A DNA stretch of 64,000 nucleotides from Promethearchaeota archaeon (GCA_029838195.1 JALGVJ010000004.1:1-64000); one strand, 5' to 3'; counted from the first letter of the stretch, positions 518 through 39,959 are shown. Program-made: numbers and translations. The notes: generated by a model not told the origin, from the sequence alone.

Positions 518-1684
518 ATGAACAAGAAAATAAAACCGATCACAAGTCCGCCTTCTAAAGAAGAATTGAGCACCCGCTTAGAGAACGTGCAAGCTCTCAT
601 GAAAGAGCATGACCTGGATTATTACGCGTGTTTTGATCCGGTTAACATTTATTATCTCACGAATTTTGCGTTTTATGTTCATGAACGTCCTTTTATTCTC
701 GTCATCCCCCGAGAGGGCGTGCCCACAATGTTAATTCCTAAACTAGAGAGAGGGCACGTGAAATCGAGAGCACGATGTGAATTAAATTTTGAGGTGTATT
801 TCGAATTTCCATGCAAGTTGGGTGAAAATTGGCATGACCATTACAGTAACCTCATTCCCTCAAGGGCGAATGTAGGAGTAGAGTCTACCATGCCGATGGC
901 AATCGTTAATCACACACCAGGGAAGATACAAGTTTTAGACCTCATAGAGGAAGTTCGAATAATCAAAACGGATTATGAAATCGGAAGGTGCGTTCATGCA
1001 TGTAAAGTGGTGAATAAAGGACATAAAGTGTTATTAAAAAATTGCAAGCCCAAAACCCTCTTATTTGCTCTCTATAAAGAAGCAACCAATGCAATGATTT
1101 CCTATATCATTAAAGATATTCCTAATGCGAATTTTAAGGTCACGGAAACCATGGGGATTGTTTGGCCGCCCTCTATATCCCATGATCCTCATTTAGTTCC
1201 TAAGATTTTTGATTCCATCGAAGAAGGGGGACCTCATGTTTCGATCGTGCAAGCTCAAGTAGATGGCTACGGAGTAGAGATTGAGCGAACATTTTTTATT
1301 GGATCCATACCAGAAAAGGCCATTAAGCCCTTTGAAACCATATTAAAAGCACGGGAATTAGCTTATAGCATGCTGAAGCCGGGAACACTCATGAGTGAAA
1401 TAGATATTAAAGTAAAAAAATTTATCGCGGAACAAGGTTATGGCAATTATATCCTTCATCGGACGGGGCATGGTTTAGGGATAACAGGCCATGAAGCTCC
1501 ATACTTGGCTGAGGGGTATGACCGTCCCTTACGGTCTGGAATGTTAGTTAGCGTAGAGCCCGGAATTTATATTCCCGGGATAGGGGGATTTCGCCATTCT
1601 GACACGGTTTTAATAACCGAAGAGGGATATGAGAAATTCACTAAGGCTCCTGAAACACGAGATGAGGTACTATTAAAAACGTGA
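518..1684 (+). CDS. Xaa-Pro aminopeptidase/dipeptidase (M24 family)
   Basis: Creatinase-like N-domain; HRTGHGLG, HEAP, SVEPGIY and GGFRHSDT motifs. Confidence 0.9.
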   Translation: MNKKIKPITSPPSKEELSTRLENVQALMKEHDLDYYACFDPVNIYYLTNFAFYVHERPFILVIPREGVPTMLIPKLERGHVKSRARCELNFEVYFEFPCKLGENWHDHYSNLIPSRANVGVESTMPMAIVNHTPGKIQVLDLIEEVRIIKTDYEIGRCVHACKVVNKGHKVLLKNCKPKTLLFALYKEATNAMISYIIKDIPNANFKVTETMGIVWPPSISHDPHLVPKIFDSIEEGGPHVSIVQAQVDGYGVEIERTFFIGSIPEKAIKPFETILKARELAYSMLKPGTLMSEIDIKVKKFIAEQGYGNYILHRTGHGLGITGHEAPYLAEGYDRPLRSGMLVSVEPGIYIPGIGGFRHSDTVLITEEGYEKFTKAPETRDEVLLKT

Positions 1685-1856: not shown

Positions 1857-4358
1857 ATGAGCCTCAAGGAATTTTCTAAGGAGATTTTTACTCGATATGG
1901 ATTAAATGACCAGCAAATTCGGATATACTTGGGTTATTTAAGAGTTCCACGCGCAACGCCCAGTCAAGTCTATTTAATGTTTTCGGAGGAAGATGGTATT
2001 GATTATGAAACCGTCGTGGAAACGACTAATTTTTTGGAAGAAAAGGGATTTCTTAAAAAAATTGAGGGTGCAATTTCGGGACTAAATAGGTACATTCCGC
2101 TTGAACCTTATTTTGAATTATTCGTGAATGAATCGGCTGGATTTAGAGAGGAAATTGCTAAGATTAAAGACGACATCTTAATCGAGCAATCGACTCAATT
2201 TTCCCGCTTAGACGAGGTCCAACAAGAAAAAGTGGGAGAAATTGATTCGACAGTAAGAACTCAAATAAGCGAATTTTTCAAGGATGCGGATAATAAGAAT
2301 GCAGAAGTGAAAAATATCCTTAAGGAAAAAAATGATTTCTTTTCCGCCACGAATAAAACTATCGAAAATAAGCTTCATAAAAACTTGGAAAATACACATT
2401 CCGAACTGAAGGGAGATATTCAAGGTTTAGATACGGAATTAAGTTCCATTTCGGAGACCCACAAGAATTCATTAAAATCATTAGAACAAAAATTACATGA
2501 GGTAAAAGATCTCTTAAATGCGGATTTAAAAAATATATCGAAAGCCTTTGTCGAGGAAAATGAGAAGGAGATTAATTCTGCTAAAGAGGGCATCTCCAAT
2601 ATGGTTGCAGAAATGTTGAAGGATTTTAATGAGCGCACTAAGGATTTAGAGATTGAATTAAAGAAGAATTTAGAGGAGCACGTGGAGAGGCATGCGAGTA
2701 TCGCTAATGAATTAAAACCGCAAATGGAGCAGATTCTTGATAAATATTTGGAGCGCATGGAGAAAATCGTTACGGATTTAAAAAAGCAAATCTCTAAGCT
2801 CTTGAAAACTCATGAAAATCAAATTCAAAATTTCACGAATGCATTAGAAACCAATTTAAAAGCCAAGATTGAAAAACGGCACGAAATCTTGGTAGAGCAA
2901 ACCACTAATTTTAAAAATACTACTTTACGATTAATCGATAATTTGTTGGAACATGCAAACCGTTTCACGGATTTTTCTGAAGATATGGCAAAAAAAGGCT
3001 TTTTCTGGATTGGTAAGAAGCAAAAATATAAAGAAAGAAATGAAGGCGTGATTCGGGATGTACTCACCTATACAAAACCCATGCGTGAATCGTTTACCAC
3101 GGAATGCAATGAATACATGGATCAAACAAGGGCTACCAATAGTGAATTGAAAAATGAAATATCCACCACCTTATCAACTGAAAATGAAAAAATTTTCAAG
3201 GAAACGGAACAATTAAATGACGATGCTCAAAGATCCATTGAAGCTCAATTAGAGATCTTGGCTACAGACATGGCTTCGGAAATAGATACCACGCTTCAAA
3301 AAGGCGTAAAAGATTGTTCTGATACCACCGTTAAATTAAAAGATTCCCTCGAAAGTACCCTTTCGCAGTACAATAAGCAACATGGCGAAGAAATGAGACG
3401 ACATGAAGAAACCACTTTAAGGCATTATACTAATTTTGATAAAGATATTAAAATTAAAAATGAAGATTGGGTTAAAGATGCAGGTGTTAAATTTTCCGCA
3501 GGAAAGAAGGATGTCTCTAACCTCGTGGAATCCATCATCAGTGATATTGATAATTTTATTTCTAAGCGGAAAAAAGTGGAAGAAGAACGATTAAAAAAGA
3601 TACGCACGGATTTTGATGATTCAAAAGCGTTTGTAACAGAAAACATTAATTCACAAATTACCACGTGGAATGAAGCCTCTGCAGACATGGAATCTCAGCT
3701 CGAGAATCTTTTAAATGCCCATAAAACAACATGCCAAGAAAATGCTAGCACTCTCCAGAAGCAATTAACTGAAACGATAGGTAGCACGATTAATGCTGAA
3801 AAAGACATCTTTTCCGATTTTAATGCAAATTTTATCAAGGCAATCAATGACGCAACAGATATTGCAGAAACCAATGAAGAAAAATTAAAAGAAATCTATC
3901 GTGCGTCTGCGGCAATAGAAGAACCCACAAAAATTACCACCTGGCATACGGTGGGAATGAAAGCATTAATTTCTAACATAAAAGACATGATTTATCGCGT
4001 GAAATCCTCTATTATCATCGTTCTACCTGAAGTTATCCCCGAAATTCTTAAATTCGTATCTGAAATTGCTTATCAAAAGAAGGCGGCACGCTTCATGCTC
4101 ACGAGCAATTTTGATCTAAGCGTGTATGGTCCCATTCTTAATAAAATGAAACTCTTAGGCAACATTCAATTTCGCCAATTAGGAACACCCGGAGAATATT
4201 ATGCTGTAACCAGAGATGCTGAAGAAGTCATCATTGCCCCAGCAACTAAAGATGAAGCTCAACTCATTAGCATGGTATCCACTCAAGAATCCTATGCAAA
4301 ATTATATGCTCAATTCATCGGACCTATTTTTACTGCGAATAGTAGGCCAATCAGATGA
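1857..4358 (+). CDS. TrmB-like wHTH + ~600-aa coiled coil + TrmB C-terminal (PLD-fold-like) domain protein
   Basis: N-term YGLNDQQIRIYLGYL..ATPSQV..LEEKGFLKK..RYIPLEP (TrmB wHTH pattern); long E/K/L heptad region; C-term IKDMIYRVKSSIIIVLP...AVTRDAEEVIIAP. Confidence 0.7.
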   Translation: MSLKEFSKEIFTRYGLNDQQIRIYLGYLRVPRATPSQVYLMFSEEDGIDYETVVETTNFLEEKGFLKKIEGAISGLNRYIPLEPYFELFVNESAGFREEIAKIKDDILIEQSTQFSRLDEVQQEKVGEIDSTVRTQISEFFKDADNKNAEVKNILKEKNDFFSATNKTIENKLHKNLENTHSELKGDIQGLDTELSSISETHKNSLKSLEQKLHEVKDLLNADLKNISKAFVEENEKEINSAKEGISNMVAEMLKDFNERTKDLEIELKKNLEEHVERHASIANELKPQMEQILDKYLERMEKIVTDLKKQISKLLKTHENQIQNFTNALETNLKAKIEKRHEILVEQTTNFKNTTLRLIDNLLEHANRFTDFSEDMAKKGFFWIGKKQKYKERNEGVIRDVLTYTKPMRESFTTECNEYMDQTRATNSELKNEISTTLSTENEKIFKETEQLNDDAQRSIEAQLEILATDMASEIDTTLQKGVKDCSDTTVKLKDSLESTLSQYNKQHGEEMRRHEETTLRHYTNFDKDIKIKNEDWVKDAGVKFSAGKKDVSNLVESIISDIDNFISKRKKVEEERLKKIRTDFDDSKAFVTENINSQITTWNEASADMESQLENLLNAHKTTCQENASTLQKQLTETIGSTINAEKDIFSDFNANFIKAINDATDIAETNEEKLKEIYRASAAIEEPTKITTWHTVGMKALISNIKDMIYRVKSSIIIVLPEVIPEILKFVSEIAYQKKAARFMLTSNFDLSVYGPILNKMKLLGNIQFRQLGTPGEYYAVTRDAEEVIIAPATKDEAQLISMVSTQESYAKLYAQFIGPIFTANSRPIR

Positions 4359-5787: not shown

Positions 5788-6017
5788 GATAAACACGTAT
5801 TTATTTTTACAATTATTATAATTTTTATTACTTTATAATTTTCATTCATTAAGGCATTTTGATAAAAACATGTATTCCATGTTAAATATAAAAATATTTA
5901 GTTATTAAGATTTCCATATTTTCTATTTGATTATTATAATTTTTCACGAAGATTAAACATTCATTTTATAGTCCATTATTAAATTTTTTCACGAAAACAA
6001 GATCTTCTCAAAAATTC

Positions 6018-7370
6018 TTATTGAGGTGAGTAGTATTGTTCAATTTTTTTTACCTCTTTCTTTATTTCTAAGAGATCTGCATGAGTAAGCGTGTTAGTCT
6101 CAAAGATCACGTGTTCACAATCATATTTCCTGAAATTTTTTTCTATAATTTTAATTCCAAACTCCTTTTTTTCATTCCATAATCTCGAACCAGGATAAGG
6201 CGTAGCGAGGAAAAAATTAACTTTATCTTCTTTTGTCAAGGGAAGGGATTTAAGAAAATGGAGCGTTTCTTTAAGCGTATCTTTTGTTTCTCCTGGTAAA
6301 CCTACCACGAAATATGCTTGAATGGGAAGCTCGTGTTTTTTTAATAAAATTATTCCTTTTTTAACTTTTTGAGGGTCTTGCTTTTTCAAATTCATTTCTA
6401 ATACGGTTTTGCTTGCGGATTCGATGCCCGTTGCGATTAACTTGCAACCCGCTTTTTTCAACAATTTTACTTGAGGTTCGGTTAATTTGTCGACTCGTAA
6501 TTCGCATCCCCATGGAATGTTAAATTGATTCGTAATAAACATGTTGCAAAATGCTGTAAAAAAATCATTAGAAATGTTCAAATTATCATAGAAATTAATG
6601 TATTCATAAGTTTGCATGGATAATATATCTCTTATCTCAGCTTCAAGGGAGGAAATGCTTCTCAGTCTCACCCGATTCTTAAATAATTTTTGTCTGGTAC
6701 AAAAGGAGCATTGATAAGGACAGCCACGATTAACAATGACATTTGCCACGGTGTAAAAATAATTTTCCGGTTCTAACTTGTATCTTGCGGGTAGGGGTAA
6801 GGAATCCATATCAATTGTTTCATTAGAAAATCCAGTAAAAACGATCTTATTCTTGTCGCCCACGAAGGCCAGCCCCTTAATTTTATTTATCTTTTCTTTA
6901 AATTTTTGGAACATGGTTTTATAATTTGGCATGGAAAGTAGCAGTTTTGATAATTTCAAGAAGGAATATTCTGCCTCTCCAATACATATAAAATCTATTA
7001 TACCTCGATTTCCTCCAAATTGACGCAAGATTTGTTCATGTTGAAAAGAAGCATGGGGGCCTCCTAAAATAACGATTTTTTCCGGATGGTGGGATTTAAT
7101 AGTTCGTGCGATATTAATAGCTAAGTGAAATGTATTTGTTAAGCACGTGATACCAATGATGTGGTATTTTCTTGTTTTTTCTTTGATCAACTCATTTAGA
7201 GAGTTTATCTCAACGGTTCGATATTGCTCCAAATCTAATATATCCACGGGAATATCACGGGAATCGAGAATGGCTGCCAAGTATAAGAGCCCCAAGTTCG
7301 GTTCTCGAACGCAAACCTCTTTTTTGCTGTGATTCTTGCATGTTTTGGGGTTGATTAATAAAATCATCAT
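6018..7370 (-). CDS. Cobalamin-binding radical SAM protein (class B methylase-like)
   Basis: PNLGLLYLAA, LGGPHAS, GEAE (B12-binding domain); RGCPYQCSFC; GIESAS; VGLPGET; TPYPGS. Confidence 0.9.
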   Translation of the reverse strand: MMILLINPKTCKNHSKKEVCVREPNLGLLYLAAILDSRDIPVDILDLEQYRTVEINSLNELIKEKTRKYHIIGITCLTNTFHLAINIARTIKSHHPEKIVILGGPHASFQHEQILRQFGGNRGIIDFICIGEAEYSFLKLSKLLLSMPNYKTMFQKFKEKINKIKGLAFVGDKNKIVFTGFSNETIDMDSLPLPARYKLEPENYFYTVANVIVNRGCPYQCSFCTRQKLFKNRVRLRSISSLEAEIRDILSMQTYEYINFYDNLNISNDFFTAFCNMFITNQFNIPWGCELRVDKLTEPQVKLLKKAGCKLIATGIESASKTVLEMNLKKQDPQKVKKGIILLKKHELPIQAYFVVGLPGETKDTLKETLHFLKSLPLTKEDKVNFFLATPYPGSRLWNEKKEFGIKIIEKNFRKYDCEHVIFETNTLTHADLLEIKKEVKKIEQYYSPQ

Positions 7371-8218
7371 TCATTTTCTTTTTTCGAAGATTTAATCTTA
7401 TTAAATAATTCCATTCGCTCTTGCTCTTCTACAGTAAATTCTGGAGGCGGCATGTGAAACGCTTCTAATAAAGAATTAAAATCTTGTTCCTTGGAAAATT
7501 TTTCTTCCTTATTAATGGGGATTTCTAATTCTAAAGGAGGAGGGATTCCTTCTTTTTTAATAAAGAGTTCGATAGCTTCAATTTTATTATTTTTTATTAA
7601 AATCCGAGTTGAATAATTTTGGTCATCAAAAAAGGTAAAGCCGTTATTTAATCTCCCTAATTTTTCCAGTTTTTTAATTAGTTTTTCCTCTTTAACGAAA
7701 TTTTTAAATATTTCTTCTTCAGAATGGATGGCACCTCCCATTATTATAAATGTTCTTATCATGTTTTCGGGAATGGGTAATTCTTGTAGTTGTTGTACAA
7801 TTTTTTGCATGTTTGAGCTTTTAAAAATGGTTAAATAAGGAGGATTCATTCGCAATTGATCTAAATCTCCAAAATCTTCTTTTTTAATATCTCGTGCTCT
7901 GCCTTTACCAATTTTGTTATTGATGATTTCAAGGAATTTTGGATCTTTTTCTGAAAGCGTGTTTAAAAAATATACTCTATAAAAGAGTTTTAATTGATTT
8001 CTTAATCTATTAGCCAATAACGCACCAAATACTTGAAGCTTGATGGAACTTCCGGGTCCATTCCATATCCAGATTCTTTTCATGATATGGTCAACAATCA
8101 GAAACACTTTTTCTTTTCCTTTTTCCATGATGACATCCTTGATGTATAACCCTTCTAATACCTCTCTGGTTTCCATGTAAGGATATTGGTCAATTTCGTG
8201 AACTTCAAAAACTTGCAT
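7367..8218 (-). CDS. Gelsolin-domain protein (Asgard 1DGelX-like)
   Basis: KVFLIVDHIMKRIWIWNGPGSS gelsolin core motif, followed by a second beta-rich domain (GFTFFDDQNYSTRILIKNNKIEAIELF). Confidence 0.7.
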   Translation of the reverse strand: MQVFEVHEIDQYPYMETREVLEGLYIKDVIMEKGKEKVFLIVDHIMKRIWIWNGPGSSIKLQVFGALLANRLRNQLKLFYRVYFLNTLSEKDPKFLEIINNKIGKGRARDIKKEDFGDLDQLRMNPPYLTIFKSSNMQKIVQQLQELPIPENMIRTFIIMGGAIHSEEEIFKNFVKEEKLIKKLEKLGRLNNGFTFFDDQNYSTRILIKNNKIEAIELFIKKEGIPPPLELEIPINKEEKFSKEQDFNSLLEAFHMPPPEFTVEEQERMELFNKIKSSKKENE

Positions 8219-8333
8219 GATAGATTCTGACCCTTTTTTTCTATATAATTAGTAATATCAATACTCATAAAATTTTTATGAAAAAATACATTAAGAATAT
8301 TAATTGCGCCTTAGTTATAAATAAAAGATTATC

Positions 8334-8738
8334 ATGTCATCGAGAAACGTCGTTTATAAGCTTAACATCTCTGGTGGAAATTCTGGACCCGGTAAGGGGT
8401 TGAGTAAGACTATTCAAATCGATGAAAAGAAGTTTCGATTTGCCGGAATGAAAATTGGCGATGTGATTAAAGGCGAACTCATTGGTTTTCCTAATTATGA
8501 ATTTGAAATCACGGGCGGATCGGACTCCAGTGGTTTTCCCATGAGAAAAGATGTTCATGGTCCCGTGAAAAAAAAAATATTGGTTTCTAAAAGGGGAATT
8601 GGATATCGTCCAAAAAGAAAAGGACAAAAAAAAAGGAAGACCGTGCGAGGAAATGAAATTACGACAGATATGACTCAAATAAATCTAAAAGTCATCAAGT
8701 ATGGAGAAGCAGAATTATTTAAAAAGGAACAGGAATAA
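8334..8738 (+). CDS. rps6e: 30S ribosomal protein eS6
   Basis: GMKIGD, FEITGGSDSSGFPMR, RKTVRGN. Confidence 0.97.
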   Translation: MSSRNVVYKLNISGGNSGPGKGLSKTIQIDEKKFRFAGMKIGDVIKGELIGFPNYEFEITGGSDSSGFPMRKDVHGPVKKKILVSKRGIGYRPKRKGQKKRKTVRGNEITTDMTQINLKVIKYGEAELFKKEQE

Positions 8739-8762
8739 TAAGAAAGGAATGGGTGAAAATAA

Positions 8763-8945
8763 GTGGTAAAACAGCGTAAATGTAGTTTCTGCGGATATCA
8801 AATTCCAATTGGAATGGGTATCATGTACGTAAAACGAGATGGTCAAATATTAAATTTTTGCACGAATAAATGTCGAAAAGCTATGTTGAAATACAAGAAG
8901 AATCCGAGAAAAACCAGATGGACCGCATATTATGGAAAACAATGA
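8763..8945 (+). CDS. rpl24e: 50S ribosomal protein eL24
   Basis: CSFCG..I..G.G.MYVKRDG..FCTNKC..KNPRKTRWT; GTG start after a GGTGA SD. Confidence 0.97.
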   Translation: MVKQRKCSFCGYQIPIGMGIMYVKRDGQILNFCTNKCRKAMLKYKKNPRKTRWTAYYGKQ

Positions 8946-25628: not shown

Positions 25629-27344
25629 TTATTTCCGTGCCTCTTCTTCTCTTAAAGCTTTTTTCAACACCTTTCCAACTAATGTTAACGGAAGCTCCTC
25701 GCGAAATTCCCATATTTTCGGTACCTCGTATTTAGCAAGATTTTCTTGCGCAAATTTCTGTATGCTTTCCTTCACCTCTTCCGTTGCTTCAATTCCTTGC
25801 TTCAATTGCACGATCGCCTTGACAATTTCACTGCCCGGACGATTTGGATCCGGTACCCCAATAATGGCTAACAATTGGATGGCCGGATGTTTTGTCAAAA
25901 CTTCCTCTACATGGACACTATAAACCTTGAATCCGCTCACGCTTAGCATGTCTTTCGTGCGGTCTATAATTTTTAAATAGCCATCTTCGTCAAAGATTCC
26001 CACATCGCCCGTGTGGAGCCATCCATTGATCCAAGTTTGCACCGTTGCTTCAGGCTTTTTATAATATCCGTGAGTAATTTGAGGACCCTTAAGACAAATT
26101 TCACCCGGTTGTCCAACTTCAACTTCTTCTCCTGTTGAAACATCTACTAGTATGACTTCCGTATCCGGAAGAGGAAGCCCGACAGAGCCAATGCGTTTCT
26201 CTCCTAATGCGGGATTGACCGTTACGAGTACCGCAGATTCCGTCATACCATAAACCTCCACGAACTTATTTTGTGTATAAAATTGCTTTTCAAATTCTTT
26301 AATAGCTTCAGGTGGAAACGGTGCCGCCCCTGACACGTATAACGATATATTTTGTAATATCTCCGGAGGAATTTCCTTGGACTTGGGATTTCTCATTAGC
26401 ATCAAGTATAATGTGGGAACATTTCCAAAACAAGTTATCTTTTTATCGATGATTTCATGAATGATATGGTCCGTATCTCGTGGATTGGCAATGATCACGT
26501 GAGAAGATCCTATATATGTGAGAAAAAGCCCAATGAATAATCCGGCAATATGAAAATAAGGAAAAGCGGAAAGAGTTATGTCAGTTCCCTTCTTCCTGTT
26601 AAGCCACGTGTCAAATTGCTGCATATTTGCGTGCAAGTTAAAGTGAGTTATTTCAACGCCTTTTGGCTTGCCCGTCGTGCCCCCTGTATATTGGATTTGA
26701 GCTAAATCATTTTTTGGGTCGATTTCTACTTTCTTCAAATCAATGGGAGTTTCCACGGCTTCCAAAAAGGGTACCACTTTCTTACCCGGCCAGGGCTTGA
26801 TTTTTCCCGAAGGAATCTTCTTTATGAGTTTTCCCATGAACACTTTAAATTTCGAAAAGCCCATGAACTCGGAAATGTTGGTAGGAATGATCACTTCAAC
26901 TTTGGGCAATTTATCCAAGATTTTGCTAAAGATTTTTTCATAGACAATATCCATAGTTACGACAAACTTAGTATCCGAGTCATCTAATTGATAGGCAATT
27001 TCAGGAGGGCTTAATAGAGGTGAGCAGCCAGAACATATCCCTCCAGCAATATAAGTTCCATATACTGTGATTAGATATTGTGGGCTGTTTGGAATGTTCA
27101 CGGAAACTACGTCTCCTTTTTTTAGGCCATTTTTTTGGAGAAACGTTGCAAATTTTTGGGATAGATTTAAAATTTCGCCGTAGGTCATGGCTCTATCCAT
27201 GAAATAGAATCCGATTCTATCTTTAAACGTTTCCATGGCGTTGGTAAGGCACGTTCCCAAGTCCTCTAAGACATAATCAAGGGAGGGGGGAACATGCTTA
27301 TCATAGGATTTCAACCAGATTTTTTCTTTACTTGTAAAGGTCAT
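25629..27344 (-). CDS. Long-chain fatty acid-CoA ligase (FadD-like)
   Basis: YTGGTTGKPKG, YGMTE, GWLHTGD, LPLTLVGKVLK. Confidence 0.92.
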   Translation of the reverse strand: MTFTSKEKIWLKSYDKHVPPSLDYVLEDLGTCLTNAMETFKDRIGFYFMDRAMTYGEILNLSQKFATFLQKNGLKKGDVVSVNIPNSPQYLITVYGTYIAGGICSGCSPLLSPPEIAYQLDDSDTKFVVTMDIVYEKIFSKILDKLPKVEVIIPTNISEFMGFSKFKVFMGKLIKKIPSGKIKPWPGKKVVPFLEAVETPIDLKKVEIDPKNDLAQIQYTGGTTGKPKGVEITHFNLHANMQQFDTWLNRKKGTDITLSAFPYFHIAGLFIGLFLTYIGSSHVIIANPRDTDHIIHEIIDKKITCFGNVPTLYLMLMRNPKSKEIPPEILQNISLYVSGAAPFPPEAIKEFEKQFYTQNKFVEVYGMTESAVLVTVNPALGEKRIGSVGLPLPDTEVILVDVSTGEEVEVGQPGEICLKGPQITHGYYKKPEATVQTWINGWLHTGDVGIFDEDGYLKIIDRTKDMLSVSGFKVYSVHVEEVLTKHPAIQLLAIIGVPDPNRPGSEIVKAIVQLKQGIEATEEVKESIQKFAQENLAKYEVPKIWEFREELPLTLVGKVLKKALREEEARK

Positions 27345-34067: not shown

Positions 34068-35555
34068 ATGTTTTATCAAAATAAAGTTTTGGATAAATTG
34101 AGAAGAGGCTACACGCCCACGGAATTTGGAAAACCAGCAATTACATCCATATACAATGAGGTTTTTAAACCGTTAGTGAAAAGAAGAGAATTAGAGTTCT
34201 TTATAAATTTATATGGTACAAACGAGAACGTGTTAAAAGCATGGAGCTTTTTAGGAATTTACGAAATTTTAAAAGAAAATCCCCATATCAAGGAAGATTT
34301 AAAACCGCCTCTTCAAGAAATAATAAAACAATTATTAGTGGACGAATCCTTGATCACTTATCAAGGGGGTAACACGAAAATTGAAATACCTTTAAGAGAA
34401 CATCATGTTAGCAGAATTTGTGAATTGAAAAGGGATTTAACATTCCTCCCGGTATTTGAATACGTTTCTCATTCAATAAAAAAAAAAGATGATGTTATCG
34501 GAGAATTACTCGAAAAGGTATTGTCAAAAACGGGGGATCCTCGAATTGAAGATTTAATTTTCCAATTGGCCCACAAAATAAGTGTTCATGATACAAAATT
34601 TAAATCCCATATCATTAAAGCTCTCATAAATTTACAAGAAACCACGGGAATCAATGATAAAGAACAGGTGAGACAAATCTTACTATCTTACTTGGAGAAT
34701 ATTAATGAGATTAATGAAAGCATCCTCTCTAAGTCAAATGCCTTGGACCAATCTTCAATGATTTCCCAATTAAATAAATATCGATTATTACATGAAAAGA
34801 TTTTAAAAGCTGCCGCAATTTTAGATTTAAATTTTGAACGTGAAACTCTTGAATATTTAGAAAATTTGAAATATCCCTTTCCCTCCTTGTCAGAAATTGC
34901 TGAAAAATATAAAAATAATGAAAAATTCAGAGAAATCCTTTTGAAAAAATTGGAAAGTACTTCTAACCCTAATTTGATCAAGGATCTTCTCCTCTCCATC
35001 CTCGCCTTGAAAAATATCATTCCTAATTGGAAAGAACTCGTCATGAAAAATTTAGAAAATTATCAACTTAATGATGGCGAGCTAATCGTTAAATTAGAAG
35101 AAGAGAATCTCTATGATGAAGACATGGTAACCGCCTTTCTAAAAGAGGGGGAAGAATGGCAGCTGGAATTTATAAGAGAATTTCTCCTTTATTTTCCGGA
35201 AAAATTAGATGAATGGAAAAAATTCAGAGACCAATTTGTTTTAATTTTAAAATCCCTTCCTTCTCTTGAGCAAGATTTAAAAGAGAAAGAAGAGCTCTTA
35301 AAAAAAAAAGAAATCATTTTTAAAATCTTAATTGAATTAGGTCCTAAGGACATGATCGAACCTTGCTTGGAAAATTTTAAAAATTTAAAAGATGAGCATC
35401 TAAGGAAAATGTGTCTGTTTATCATGACGAAATACGGGGAACAACCTTTACTTTTAGACTTAAAAACCTTCTTAAAAACTGATAACGATGCAAACGTGAT
35501 ATTTAAAAAATTTTGGAAAGAATTAGAACGAAGGGATGGGCAATTTTATTATTAG
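34068..35555 (+). CDS. Hypothetical alpha-helical (HEAT/ARM-like) protein
   Basis: 495-aa ORF, Leu/Lys/Glu-rich helical pattern, no catalytic motif recognised. Confidence 0.65.
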   Translation: MFYQNKVLDKLRRGYTPTEFGKPAITSIYNEVFKPLVKRRELEFFINLYGTNENVLKAWSFLGIYEILKENPHIKEDLKPPLQEIIKQLLVDESLITYQGGNTKIEIPLREHHVSRICELKRDLTFLPVFEYVSHSIKKKDDVIGELLEKVLSKTGDPRIEDLIFQLAHKISVHDTKFKSHIIKALINLQETTGINDKEQVRQILLSYLENINEINESILSKSNALDQSSMISQLNKYRLLHEKILKAAAILDLNFERETLEYLENLKYPFPSLSEIAEKYKNNEKFREILLKKLESTSNPNLIKDLLLSILALKNIIPNWKELVMKNLENYQLNDGELIVKLEEENLYDEDMVTAFLKEGEEWQLEFIREFLLYFPEKLDEWKKFRDQFVLILKSLPSLEQDLKEKEELLKKKEIIFKILIELGPKDMIEPCLENFKNLKDEHLRKMCLFIMTKYGEQPLLLDLKTFLKTDNDANVIFKKFWKELERRDGQFYY

Positions 35556-35769: not shown

Positions 35770-37749
35770 TTAATCAAATTTAATATCCATTTTCTTTCTT
35801 TCCTCCAATAGAACATTTACTATGGAAGGATCTGCCAATGTTGTCGTGTTGCCAATATCGGTCCCTGAAGCAATTGCCTTGAGAATTCGCCTCATGATCT
35901 TACCGCTGCGCGTTTTTGGCAAATCATCAGCAAATTGAATCACATCAGGTTGAAATACCGGCCCGATCTCCTTGCGCACGTGTTGGATGATATCTTTTTT
36001 TAGCTCTTCTGATTTCTCTACCCCTTGAATTAATGTAACGAATGCCCAAATGGCATTTCCCTTTATTTTATGAGGAAAGGGCGCAACCGCAGCTTCCGCA
36101 ACTTTTGGATGCGAAACAATAGCAGATTCCACCTCCATTGTCCCAATTCGATGCCCCGATACTTTTATGACATCATCTAATCGCCCTAAAATCCAATAAT
36201 AGCCATCAGCATCTCTTCGCGCACCATCTCCCGTGTAATATGTACCCGGATAACGGCTTAAATACGTGGAAATAAATCGCTCCGTATCTCCCCATACATC
36301 TCTTAACATGCCAGGCCATGGTTTTTGGATACAGAGATATCCTCCTTCATTGGGTTCTGTAACTTCTTCACCTTCCATATCATAAATTACCGGTTTAATA
36401 CCAAAGAATGGAAAGCAACATGATCCTGGTTTTGTAGGGGTCGCAGTTGCTATTGGTGTCATGATAAACCCTCCGGTTTCGGTCTGCCAATACGTATCAA
36501 TAATGGGGCAACGCTCTTTACCAATTACCCTAAAATACCATGTCCACGCTTCAGGATTAATGGGTTCTCCCACAGTGCCTAAGACTTTTAAGCTACTTAG
36601 GTCATGCTTTTTTGCCGGTTCGTCTCCGTATCTCATTAATGCTCTAATGGCGGTCGGTGCGGTGTAGAAATGCGTGACTTTATGTCTTTCGACTATATCC
36701 CAGAACCTGTCTACATCAGGATAAGATGGGACGCCTTCGAACATCAAAGAGGTGGCTCCATTTGCCAATGGGCCATAAACAATATATGAATGTCCCGTTA
36801 TCCACCCAATATCAGCAGTACAAAACCAAACATCTCCTTCATGGTAATTAAAAACCACTCTATGAGTATAAGAGGTATATAATAGATATCCCGCAGTCGT
36901 GTGTTTAACTCCCTTGGGCTTGCCCGTCGTTCCCGAGGTATATAAAATAAATAACGTATCTTCGGAATCCATTTCTTCGCATTCGCATTCATCGCTCACA
37001 TCCTTGATGAGGTCATCATACCAAATATCTTTAGAAGTATGAGGAATCTCTCTTCCCGAGCGTTTTACAATTATCACGTGCTCAATTGTGGGTACATCTT
37101 CAATGATCTTTACTACATCAGCCATTTTGGGATAAAATTTACCCGCTCTTACAGTTTCATCGCTCGTAAATAATAAACGGGAGTCGGAATCATAAATTCT
37201 ATCTTTTACAGCCTCTTTAGAAAAGCCCCCAAAAACGATGGAATGGATGACACCAATTCTTGCACACGCTAGCATGATTATGGCAAGTTCGGCGATCATG
37301 GGAAGCCAGATCGTCACGCGATCTCCCTTTTTTAAACCTAATTTTTTCATTCCGTTTGCTACTTTTGATACTTCTCTTTTCAGGTCATTATACGTGAATG
37401 TTCGGACTTGTCCGGGCTCATCAGCCTCCCAAATTAATGCAATTTTATCTCCTTTTCCAGCTTCAACGTGTCTATCGATGCAATTATAGCAGACATTCAA
37501 TTTTCCTCCCATGAACCATTTTCCCGGGAAGAGATCGGTTTTTTCCCAGACTTTTTCAAAAGGCTTGAACCAACTCAAAGATTTTGCTTGTTCTCCCCAA
37601 AACCCTTCCATGTCTTCAATGCTTTTTTCATACAATTTTTTGTATTCATCCGGGGTGATTCCCGTTTTTGCAAATTCGGGGTTTATTTTAACGGGGTCAA
37701 ATATGCGGTCTTCAGTTAAGATACTTTCCATTTTTTCTTCTTTTGACAT
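35770..37749 (-). CDS. acs: AMP-forming acetyl-CoA synthetase
   Basis: YTSGTTGKPKG, CTADIGWITGHSY, VGEPINPEAW, DTYWQTETG, LPKTRSGKIMRR. Confidence 0.97.
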   Translation of the reverse strand: MSKEEKMESILTEDRIFDPVKINPEFAKTGITPDEYKKLYEKSIEDMEGFWGEQAKSLSWFKPFEKVWEKTDLFPGKWFMGGKLNVCYNCIDRHVEAGKGDKIALIWEADEPGQVRTFTYNDLKREVSKVANGMKKLGLKKGDRVTIWLPMIAELAIIMLACARIGVIHSIVFGGFSKEAVKDRIYDSDSRLLFTSDETVRAGKFYPKMADVVKIIEDVPTIEHVIIVKRSGREIPHTSKDIWYDDLIKDVSDECECEEMDSEDTLFILYTSGTTGKPKGVKHTTAGYLLYTSYTHRVVFNYHEGDVWFCTADIGWITGHSYIVYGPLANGATSLMFEGVPSYPDVDRFWDIVERHKVTHFYTAPTAIRALMRYGDEPAKKHDLSSLKVLGTVGEPINPEAWTWYFRVIGKERCPIIDTYWQTETGGFIMTPIATATPTKPGSCCFPFFGIKPVIYDMEGEEVTEPNEGGYLCIQKPWPGMLRDVWGDTERFISTYLSRYPGTYYTGDGARRDADGYYWILGRLDDVIKVSGHRIGTMEVESAIVSHPKVAEAAVAPFPHKIKGNAIWAFVTLIQGVEKSEELKKDIIQHVRKEIGPVFQPDVIQFADDLPKTRSGKIMRRILKAIASGTDIGNTTTLADPSIVNVLLEERKKMDIKFD

Positions 37750-38042
37750 GCATTCTCACGATTTTTTTTTTTTTTTCTTTTGTATAAGATGTGCTTATCA
37801 TATTGTATATAAATGGTTAAGTGGTACAAACACCTTAAAATTTCTTTTCTAATCAAAGGTCTTGCTTTTTCATGAGCAATTCCTCTCTTAAAAAGATTAA
37901 GAACAAATGATTTTTAAAGATTATATTTTTAAATTATTATTTCTTCAAATTTTCCATTTATACCCTCAAAATTTTAACGTATAAATATTCTAAAGGTATA
38001 AATTTTATTAGTACAAAAAATTATTCTTTTAGTGGGTTTGAG

Positions 38043-39959
38043 ATGGAACACGTGGATTTATTGGATATGGAATGGAGAAAAAAATGGAAGGATAAAGAAT
38101 TAACACCAGAAGAAGCCATACATAAAATAGCCCCGGGAAATCGAGTATTCATCCATACAGGCTGCTCAGAGCCTCAAGCATTGACAAATGAACTGATAAA
38201 ACAAGCAGAAGCCCTTTATGATATTGAAATCATTCATTTCTTAACGATTTGGCCAAAAAAATATTTTAAAGAAAATAGTTCCGAGGACCTATTTCGGCAC
38301 AATGCTCTTTTTATTGGAGACACGCTTCGAGAAGCAATTAATAAAGGAATGGCGGATTACACCCCCATTCATGCCAGCCAAATCGCAAATCTCTTCATTT
38401 CGGGAAGACGTTATATAGATGTTGCCCTCCTTCAAGTATCTCCCCCTGATCGATATGGTTTTTGTTCTTTTGGAATAAACGTCGATATTTCCAAGCCCAT
38501 TGCCCAATCCGCATACATGACTATTGCTGAAATTAATCCTCAAGTGCCACGCACGTTAGGAAATAGTTTTATCCACATGAAGGAAGTAGATTATTATGTC
38601 TATAATGATGCACCGTTATTTGAATATGTTTTTAAAGATGAGGAGCCTCCTGACGTAATAGAAAAAATAGGACGAAATGTGGCTTATTTAGTGCCTAATA
38701 AATCCACCATCCACGTGGGATTCGGAAACCTTCCTAATGCTTGTTTAAAATATTTAGAAGGTAAAAAAGATCTTGGCATGCACAGTCATTTCATTACGGA
38801 TAATATCATTCCTTTAATTGAAAAAACCGTATTAACATGTAGGAAAAAAAATTTTCACCCCGAAAAAATTATTGCGAGTTTTTGCTTGGGTAGTAAAAAA
38901 TTATATGATTTTGTCAATAACAATCCTTATATCGAATTCTATCCCTCTGATTATGTTTGCAATCCTAAATATATAAGCATGAATAAAAACATGGTTTCTA
39001 TAGTTCAAGGGCTTCAAGTAGATTTAACGGGACAAGTAAATGCGTCCAGCAAGGGATATAATTTTTATTCCGGTATAGGGGATACGGTTGATTTCATAAG
39101 AGGAGCTGCCTATTCTAAAGGAGGAAGACCTATTATCATCCTTCCATCTACTACGAATAAGGGAAAGGAGTCATCCATCGTGTCTCATTTAGATGAGGGC
39201 GCTGGCGTGGTTCTGACTCGTGCCGACGTGCATTATGTTGTCACGGAATGGGGAATAGCGTATCTCCACGGTAGAACGATACGTGATCGCGTGATTGAAT
39301 TGATTTGTATTGCCCATCCTAAATTCCGGCAGCAATTATTAGAAGAAGCGAAAGAACTAAATTATATTTATAAAGATCAAATGCTTTCTTGCGATGTGAA
39401 AGGAAATATTTGTTTGTACCCAAAACATTATGAAACTGTTTTTAAAACTAAAAATAATGTAGAAGTTTTCATTAGACCCGTGAAAACTACCGATGAGTCC
39501 TTATTACGGGAATTATATTATTCTCTGGATGAAAAAGACAGGTACTTGCGATTTTTTGAAGTTAAAAAGGAATTTCGACATTCAAGAACGCAAAAAGAAG
39601 TAAATATCGATTATGAGAACATCTTCTCTTTAGGAGCCTTTGTTGGAGATATTTCTGATCCGGAAATGATTGGAAATGCTTCTTATCACTATAATCCCAA
39701 TAATAACATGGCGGAATTTGATTTTATAGTGAAGCGGGAATGGCGAGGCATGGGGATAGGCTCTTATCTCTATCATTATTTGATCATGATTGCGAAGGAA
39801 AAAGGAATTCGTGGATTCTATGGAAATATTCACATCCAAAATAAAAGAACGGTAAATATCATCAAAAAGGGAGGCTATACAAAAATTACACCTCCGGAAT
39901 TTGGGGAAAAAGAGCTATTTTATCAAGTGTTTTTCACTAAGGAAAATTCCATGGATTAA
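38043..39959 (+). CDS. Acetyl-CoA hydrolase/CoA-transferase-like domain fused to a GNAT acetyltransferase
   Basis: ADYTP, QVSPPD..G.CSFG, QVDLTGQV, DFIRGA..SKGG, HYVVTEWGIA; C-term IRPVK..D, RYLRFF, AEF, WRGMGIG. Confidence 0.9.
   Translation: MEHVDLLDMEWRKKWKDKELTPEEAIHKIAPGNRVFIHTGCSEPQALTNELIKQAEALYDIEIIHFLTIWPKKYFKENSSEDLFRHNALFIGDTLREAINKGMADYTPIHASQIANLFISGRRYIDVALLQVSPPDRYGFCSFGINVDISKPIAQSAYMTIAEINPQVPRTLGNSFIHMKEVDYYVYNDAPLFEYVFKDEEPPDVIEKIGRNVAYLVPNKSTIHVGFGNLPNACLKYLEGKKDLGMHSHFITDNIIPLIEKTVLTCRKKNFHPEKIIASFCLGSKKLYDFVNNNPYIEFYPSDYVCNPKYISMNKNMVSIVQGLQVDLTGQVNASSKGYNFYSGIGDTVDFIRGAAYSKGGRPIIILPSTTNKGKESSIVSHLDEGAGVVLTRADVHYVVTEWGIAYLHGRTIRDRVIELICIAHPKFRQQLLEEAKELNYIYKDQMLSCDVKGNICLYPKHYETVFKTKNNVEVFIRPVKTTDESLLRELYYSLDEKDRYLRFFEVKKEFRHSRTQKEVNIDYENIFSLGAFVGDISDPEMIGNASYHYNPNNNMAEFDFIVKREWRGMGIGSYLYHYLIMIAKEKGIRGFYGNIHIQNKRTVNIIKKGGYTKITPPEFGEKELFYQVFFTKENSMD

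Follow-up and report, generated by a model that had tools for sequence, protein, structure and literature searches.

Reversible acetylation of the AMP-forming acetate-CoA ligase Acs is a textbook case of bacterial metabolic control by protein acetylation. To our knowledge, very little is known about this control in archaea and nothing in Asgard archaea. Here, we describe a locus in a 64,000-nucleotide stretch of DNA from a Promethearchaeota archaeon (GCA_029838195.1, JALGVJ010000004.1:1-64000; the whole stretch is called the window) in which acs lies head-to-head with a gene for a 638-amino-acid (aa) protein that joins a CoA-transferase-like domain to a Pat-type GNAT domain. We refer to the latter as the fusion gene.

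Five types of Pat have been distinguished, carrying ACD-like, cAMP, ACT or NADP sensors or none, and as of 2021 and 2025 a CoA-transferase domain was found in none of them (PMC8556138, PMC12184503). Type I Pat/PatZ of Salmonella enterica and E. coli (9it0, 9isq) resembles the fusion protein in its C-terminal Pat GNAT domain, with the same catalytic Glu and acetyl-CoA loop, and in a large N-terminal domain taken from a CoA-handling enzyme minus its catalytic residue (in PatZ, ACD His254 is replaced by Leu). Acs is the classic target of PatZ, and acetyl-CoA bound to the dead ACD-like domain activates the GNAT domain and opens a substrate channel (PMC12184503). Unlike PatZ, the fusion protein has an N-terminal domain of AbfT-type fold, unrelated to the ACD/succinyl-CoA-synthetase-like fold, and a conserved His/His/Cys/Asp replacement where PatZ shows simple loss; it is also shorter (638 aa versus ~886 aa) and comes from an archaeal host. 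Because its regulatory domain has a different fold, the fusion protein lacks the hallmark of types I and II, a domain resembling NDP-forming acyl-CoA synthetases. The type II and III enzymes (Streptomyces lividans PatA; Mycobacterium cAMP-Pat; ACT- or NADP-binding forms) share its GNAT subfamily and a fused metabolite-sensor domain, but differ in sensor type and domain order. Bacillus subtilis AcuA/AcuC and Sulfolobus Pat (3f8k) offer a further parallel, an acs-linked GNAT with an eraser of the histone deacetylase (HDAC) type (AcuC), although AcuA belongs to a different GNAT subfamily and has no fused sensor domain. Finally, the AbfT-type class I CoA-transferases share the two-domain fold and most conserved positions of the fusion protein, which departs from them in lacking the Glu nucleophile, the Asn and Gly oxyanion holes and the neighboring Gln residues, in its fusion to a GNAT domain, and in scoring far below NCBIfam equivalog cut-offs.

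We consider it slightly better than an even chance that the fusion protein acetylates Lys617 of Acs under the control of a CoA- or acyl-CoA-binding domain that is not a transferase, which would make it a new regulatory-domain type of Pat. On this reading, the Lokiarchaeial (Asgard) locus would add a sixth kind to the regulatory domains of Pat-type enzymes, and would be a second independent recruitment of a CoA-handling enzyme as a pseudo-enzyme sensor. In the mechanism we propose, a former AbfT-type class I CoA-transferase would serve as the regulatory module in place of the usual NDP-forming acyl-CoA-synthetase-like domain. This domain would still bind CoA or acyl-CoA, with the thiol or thioester end lying among His224, His249, Cys306 and Asp347, and occupancy of the pocket would gate the GNAT domain as acetyl-CoA on the dead ACD-like domain gates PatZ. 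The target would be Lys617 of the divergently encoded Acs. Acetylation would then block the adenylation half-reaction of Acs at high acetyl-CoA or low free CoA, and a deacetylase encoded in the same genome, either one of four sirtuins or one of three to four HDAC-type enzymes, would reverse it. The features concerned, in window coordinates, are these:

35770..37749, minus strand: acs, encoding the AMP-forming acetate-CoA ligase (659 aa; TIGR02188 and NF001208 scores)
35899..35901, minus strand: AAG codon of Acs Lys617, in PKTRSGK (A10 motif)
37750..38042, unstranded: divergent intergenic region between acs and the fusion gene (293 bp), AT-rich, with TATA-like TATAAAT elements
38043..39959, plus strand: 638-aa fusion gene, CoA-transferase-like domain plus Pat-type GNAT
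38043..39377, plus strand: AbfT-type class I CoA-transferase fold, residues 1-445 (Foldseek, phmmer)
39405..39959, plus strand: Pat-family GNAT domain, residues 455-638, with its YP..E..RP..D...Y.RFF leader
39714..39716, plus strand: Glu558, which falls on catalytic Glu809 of E. coli PatZ and Glu123 of SlPatA (AEF aligned with AEF)
39744..39761, plus strand: Arg568-Gly-Met-Gly-Ile-Gly573, the predicted acetyl-CoA pyrophosphate-binding loop (R/Q-x-x-G-x-G/A), aligned with PatZ KGLGLG

Both halves of the fusion protein are readily assigned. Pfam places AcetylCoA_hydro at residues 24-189, AcetylCoA_hyd_C at 283-436 and GNAT at 476-612, and an AlphaFold2 model of the protein has a pLDDT of 91.5 and a pTM of 0.89. 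The N-terminal domain has the two-domain AcetylCoA_hydro fold (PF02550, E-value 1.4e-28; PF13336, 3.7e-60). Its best structural matches in Foldseek are 2oas_A (TM(target) 0.95, root-mean-square deviation (rmsd) 1.6 Å) and 3gk7_A (0.93), with overall TM scores of 0.91-0.95, and its identity to 4-hydroxybutyrate CoA-transferases of solved structure is 33-42% (phmmer, 6e-115 to 9vag). It scores 259.6 bits against TIGR03948 (butyryl-CoA:acetate CoA-transferase), below the cut-off of 674.8, and neither Pfam nor Foldseek gave an ACD, CoA_binding or ATP-grasp match in this domain. In the C-terminal half, PF00583 (1e-9) and PF13302 (2.7e-6) match the GNAT domain, whose phmmer hits among solved proteins are PatZ 9it0 (8e-12), SlPatA 4nxy (1.6e-10), Sulfolobus Pat 3f8k (6e-8) and MtPat 4orf (5e-4). 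In Foldseek it superposes on 9it0_A with an rmsd of 1.8 Å across 174 columns. The Pat-specific leader common to PatZ, SlPatA and SsPat (YP..E...RP...D....Y.RFF) is present, the alignments starting at YPKHYE and including DRYLRFF. Against the mycobacterial Pat model NF058543, which describes the cAMP-type enzyme, the GNAT part scores 36.3 bits (cut-off 460). Glu558 occupies the column of PatZ E809 and SlPatA E123, residues with a catalytic role (PMC12184503). By these sequence features, the GNAT half is a Pat-type enzyme with intact catalytic features.

The putative substrate is equally well defined. Acs scores 962.6 bits against TIGR02188, above the equivalog cut-off of 724.95, and 987 bits against NF001208, and by whole-genome tblastn it is the sole true Acs of the 4.5-Mb genome, accompanied by ~13 more distant AMP-forming ligases. 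Its Lys617 corresponds to K609 of SeAcs, the lysine acetylated by Pat-type enzymes in other organisms (PMC12184503). A first-pass annotation of the window had already reported both open reading frames (ORFs), the His codon at 38787-38789, the GDTVDF motif and the lysine codon at 35899-35901. We confirm all of these, together with its Pat-type assignment of the GNAT domain and its retained Acs target lysine, and the shared region, given there as ~290 bp, measures 293 bp.

To describe the active site of the CoA-transferase domain, we aligned group A (54 orthologues), group B (27 fusions, paralogous or bacterial) and 46 stand-alone relatives that keep the catalytic Glu. Exactly five positions (224, 249, 306, 347 and 348) are near-invariant in the canonical sets yet uniformly changed in group A:

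38712..38714, plus strand: His224, for a conserved Gln (AarC Gln267); His in 53/54 group A proteins
38787..38789 (CAT), plus strand: His249, for the catalytic Glu nucleophile (AarC Glu294, RipA Glu249); His in 53/54
38958..38960, plus strand: Cys306, for the internal oxyanion-hole Asn (AarC Asn347, N-x-P motif); Cys in 54/54
39081..39086, plus strand: Asp347-Thr348, for the external oxyanion-hole Gly (AarC Gly388, second Gly of GGQxDF) and the Gln after it; 16 group A proteins have Asp and 38 have Glu at position 347 (54/54 in total), and 50/54 have Thr at position 348 (canonical Gln)

The canonical residues are kept in 27/27 group B fusions and in the 46 Glu-type stand-alone relatives, the internal oxyanion-hole Asn specifically in 27/27 paralogues and 43/46 stand-alone enzymes. 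With the same replacements in 53-54 of 54 orthologues and the canonical residues in paralogues and stand-alone enzymes alike, the change did not come about by chance. The motifs concerned read DLGMHSHF from residue 243 and GDTVDF from residue 346. In HMMER alignments to three solved AbfTs, the catalytic Glu pairs with His249 (dlgvhTEm versus dlgmhSHf) and G-G-Q with G-D-T, so that the Glu-to-His change and the loss of GGQ reported in the first-pass annotation are real. AarC numbering was recovered by aligning E. coli ScpC to AarC (PDB 4eud), which pairs LPLQ267SGV270G of AarC with TIH224VGF227G of the fusion protein, YSE294V with HSH249F, VSN347SP with YVC306NP, and NGIGG388SGDF392 with SGIG346D347TVDF351. 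In AarC, the nucleophile Glu294 is held by Asn347, which also provides the internal oxyanion hole, and the amide of Gly388, termed strictly conserved across the superfamily, is the external oxyanion hole; Gln267, Glu294 and Gly388 lie ~4 Å or less from the end of the bound CoA analogue (PMC4876117). By homology to these crystal structures, His224, His249, Cys306 and Asp347 probably cluster in the fold. The three defining catalytic features of a class I CoA-transferase, the Glu nucleophile, the Asn and the Gly, are all missing, and because the nucleophile and both oxyanion-hole residues are replaced, canonical ping-pong CoA transfer is very unlikely.

The remainder of the domain shows no decay. 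Among 88 positions conserved in at least 80% of canonical enzymes, group A retains 76, and its five radical changes are the active-site five; the TE402xG motif (AarC Glu435) is also retained. Within the acs-linked clade, mean pairwise identity is 82-83% for the CoA-transferase half and 76% for the GNAT domain, and the CoA-transferase domain is under the stronger constraint of the two. The active site appears from the alignment to have been exchanged as a whole constellation rather than merely damaged. The earlier description of the domain as dead is right as to the lost nucleophile and oxyanion holes, but is too simple given an invariant His/His/Cys/Asp-Glu/Thr set and a constraint above that of the GNAT domain. 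To a specialist, the invariant His/His/Cys/Asp centre, so cleanly exchanged, would be the surprising part.

Metal sites and triads are typically made of His, Cys and Asp/Glu, and the CoA-transferase domain could have been re-tooled for chemistry of its own, such as thioesterase activity, acyl relay to the GNAT domain or sensing of the CoA thiol or redox state. We regard this as unlikely; it would be compatible with Acs as the target. The site could hold a Cys-His-Asp/Glu triad with an acyl thioester, a carboxylate nucleophile relocated to position 347 or a Zn/Fe site binding the CoA thiolate, options to which we likewise give a minor chance. Similarly, we give a minor chance to the idea that His224, His249, Cys306 and Asp/Glu347, which take the place of the CoA sulfur's binding site in class I CoA-transferases, form a metal- or thiol-reactive centre that reads the thiol state of CoA (CoASH versus acyl-CoA, or disulfide/redox) and relays it to the GNAT domain. 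A re-tooled site would explain why 53-54 of 54 orthologues share all four replacements, why these, with position 348, are the only radical changes among the 88 positions, and why the domain is better conserved than the GNAT. It would also suit the conserved acidic residue at the external oxyanion-hole Gly position, beside the former nucleophile. By motif alignment, the replacements fall on AarC Gln267, Glu294, Asn347 and Gly388, which in the crystals contact one another and ring the end of the CoA arm (PMC4876117). On the other side, the mixture of 16 Asp and 38 Glu at position 347 is unusual for a precisely placed nucleophile, and P0122, the closest outgroup, carries His/Phe/Ser/Asp/Ser, so the set does not represent a stable site of long standing. 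The wider family argues the same way. Of 85 fusion representatives, only 19 have the full canonical signature and 37 have lost the Glu, with diverse replacements, while 79 have an acidic residue (E or D) in the GNAT catalytic column. That the nucleophile was lost time and again next to a GNAT domain that stayed conserved suggests that transferase catalysis is dispensable in the fusion family, and the many unrelated ways in which other clades lose the Glu fit this better than a re-tooled site; one lineage, genus g4, does without the whole domain. Were a metal or thiol centre nevertheless real, protein acetylation would have a new principle of sensing, and CoA-transferase-GNAT(-HDAC, -ferredoxin) proteins would make up a large group of acetylation regulators, so far overlooked, in both archaea and bacteria.

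The case for Acs as the substrate of a Pat gated by CoA or acyl-CoA draws on the architecture, the Pat kinship, the conserved domain with its replaced active site and the family-wide loss of the Glu described above, on a single-copy Acs that keeps its lysine, on the eraser candidates in the genome and on gene linkage. Of the group A loci whose upstream sequence extends to 2.4 kb or more, 44/47 have acs divergent and upstream, versus 0/27 group B loci, and 36 of 45 spacers measured (those of the window and 44 related loci) are shorter than 450 bp. The pairing extends to the three species of genus g4, where acs (71% identity) is divergent from a GNAT-only gene of 175-193 aa:

719-1300, minus strand, in locus L097: GNAT-only gene
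3579-4230, plus strand, in locus L098: GNAT-only gene
2487-3147, plus strand, in locus L099: GNAT-only gene
locus L188: GNAT-only gene

The product is 61-63% identical to residues 459-621 of the fusion protein and keeps both the AEF Glu and the RxxGxG loop. The gene is preceded by an out-of-frame, stop-terminated remnant of CoA-transferase residues 11-51 and looks like the result of an internal deletion of the whole N-terminal domain, leaving a protein that resembles the small stand-alone forms of the AcuA and Sulfolobus Pat kind. In a 20-kb stretch of one g4 genome, acs and the GNAT gene alone have their best homologues on the window's contig and all other genes map elsewhere, so the pair outlived the surrounding synteny. 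Acs and group A are also absent together, from four g3 genomes (89-100% complete) and two g5 genomes. One apparent exception to this co-absence was rejected as a contig break through the fusion gene. Synteny with acs, proposed in the first-pass annotation for Asgard genomes, is thus conserved (44/47) and survives both the loss of synteny and the domain deletion in g4, but the acs-linked form is confined to one GTDB family and is not Asgard-wide.

A second line of support comes from Verrucomicrobiota, in which triple fusions of CoA-transferase, GNAT and HDAC domains, 927-956 aa in length, are widespread (~927-1013 aa when all loci and the representatives P0152 and P0170 are taken together). Their CoA-transferase signature is Q-G-N-A-T, with Gly at the nucleophile position. 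Among the hosts are cultured Rubritalea tangerina, R. spongiae, R. profundi, Oceaniferula spumae, Haloferula and Thalassobacterium. We kept 80 such loci (L108-L187), most of which match near full length and 17 as a single full-length tblastn segment, for example:

6001-8862, in locus L110: triple fusion of Rubritalea tangerina
6001-8777, in locus L149: triple fusion of Oceaniferula spumae

These proteins join an AcuA/AcuC-like writer and eraser. Fusion of the two is consistent with a function in reversible acetylation in which the CoA-transferase-like part would be the sensing module. No AMP-ligase gene was found within 6 kb of the verrucomicrobial triple fusions. In the window's genome, the eraser candidates (four sirtuins and three to four HDAC-type enzymes) are unlinked to the locus. 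The triple fusions of the cultivable Rubritalea, Oceaniferula and Haloferula, the intact-site paralogue in the same genome and the GNAT-only derivative beside acs in a sister genus are natural controls. New in the present analysis are the mapping of the rebuilt centre residue by residue, the confinement of the acs-linked clade to one family, the g4 domain deletion and the triple fusions of writer and eraser.

Several points weigh against an Acs-directed, ligand-gated Pat. The genes downstream of the fusion gene (a 263-aa protein of unknown family, PAP2, a Rag-like GTPase and others) are as conserved as acs, forming a syntenic block of ~7 genes. With this block and a single GTDB family, most of the synteny counts are not independent and are weak evidence taken alone, and the g4 case is a single evolutionary event. 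Ligand binding by the N-terminal domain is something we infer from conservation alone, and a passive pocket is a poorer description of the invariant His/His/Cys/Asp-Glu set than a built site, whether metal or triad. The HDAC family includes acetylpolyamine amidohydrolases and polyamine deacetylases, and because its enzymes can also act on polyamines, the triple fusion is no proof of a protein substrate. Full-text literature searches for the fusion itself, or for acetylated Acs in archaea and in the Asgard group, turned up no account of the fusion.

Some of these points would equally suit a GNAT that is not Acs-specific but acts on several AMP-forming ligases, on other proteins or on a small amine, its adjacency to acs reflecting shared expression within acetate/acetyl-CoA metabolism or inherited gene order. 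We judge this quite unlikely. Potential substrates are plentiful: the GK lysine is retained in 12 of the ~13 other AMP-forming ligases in the genome, among them the FadD-like one at 25.6 kb, whose PLTLVGK lysine lies at ~25671-25673. About a dozen ligases share this P-x4-G-K feature, and the FadD-like ligase, suggested as a further target in the first-pass annotation, is a possible one. The confinement of the acs-linked clade to one family with a ~7-gene conserved block, the absence of an acs neighbor from the paralogue and the bacterial fusions, and the polyamine deacetylases among HDAC-family partners would all be expected if the target were broader. A broader target does not account for the acs-GNAT pair kept in g4 though all other neighbors changed, or for the co-absence of Acs and group A in six genomes of the family, and the nearest relatives of the GNAT domain are enzymes shown to acetylate Acs. 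That the CoA-transferase-like domain is a structural scaffold only, for oligomerisation or Acs docking and without ligand sensing, seems very improbable, since although tetramerisation of PatZ is driven by its regulatory domain, which shapes the substrate pocket as well (PMC12184503), and AbfT-type enzymes are dimers or tetramers (PMC3180442), a scaffold has no need for an invariant rebuilt pocket or for 76 of 88 conserved positions to be kept.

The fusion architecture as such is large and old. A phmmer search of 1.8 billion cluster representatives recovered dozens of 50%-identity clusters of ~610-660 aa from Asgard archaea, Thermodesulfobacteriota, Verrucomicrobiota, WOR-3 and others. Group A hits (at least 69% identity) were found only in the window's own GTDB family among 301 genomes of the phylum, and some kind of fusion is present in 63 of the 68 other sampled genomes of that family. 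Group B (43-52% identity, intact site) spans six families plus bacteria. The acs-linked form is narrow, but the architecture with an intact site is widespread in many Asgard archaea and in bacteria. Submitter labels had suggested a phylum-wide spread of the acs-linked form (Hod-, Hermod-, Thor- and Odinarchaeota), which we rejected since all hits of at least 69% identity are in one GTDB family; because the acs-linked genomes all belong to that family, the labels (L005, L006, L013, L032, L037 and others) are unreliable for this purpose. In a quick tree, the only phylogeny made, group A is a supported clade, sister to the long-branched P0122 (signature H-F-S-D-S). The two join (SH-aLRT 92) a group B clade made up mostly of bacteria, and outside this whole assemblage, as its sister, stands the main Asgard clade of group B.

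The window's genome also encodes a group B protein, at C92:45905-47716 (L082), with 51% identity and the canonical Gln/Glu/Asn/Gly/Gln. Since this gene and the fusion gene encode the genome's only PF13336 proteins, the organism has no stand-alone AbfT-type transferase. The genes next to the paralogue encode an HhH-GPD glycosylase, a radical SAM protein, an M48 peptidase and an FGase, and offer no clue to its target. Other domain combinations occur in the family. Two metagenomic proteins of ~960 aa (P0125, P0133) carry an N-terminal 4Fe-4S dicluster (ferredoxin-like) domain before a Glu-less CoA-transferase-GNAT, and in P0243 a CoA-transferase is fused to an enoyl-CoA hydratase. A stand-alone subfamily of ~420-430 aa (P0200, P0217, P0221, P0236, P0238) has the signature Q-G-H-G-Q, with Gly at the nucleophile position, His at the oxyanion Asn and GGQ kept, and is possibly another non-canonical active site. 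Selenocysteine or other recoding was rejected for the orthologues: in six related loci, apparent in-frame TGA, TAA or TAG codons were either codon 3 of the match or the normal terminator.

Around the pair, the 495-aa ORF on the far side of acs (34068-35555) and the 263-aa ORF 3' of the fusion gene have zero Pfam matches. The latter lies in the segment 40073-42986 together with the PAP2 phosphatase and the Rag/Gtr-like GTPase, and these genes are syntenic in ~44 related loci. Sigma-70 promoter and terminator scans of 37750-38042 gave the same counts as shuffled sequence, with models that are not applicable to archaea. The motif TTTAAACATTTTATTTATAATTTCAAAAA is present neither in this spacer nor in that of the closest relative (L001). 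In most orthologous acs/fusion loci, this ~28-nt motif lies mid-spacer, and its core 10-mers occur in 28 of 36 spacers.

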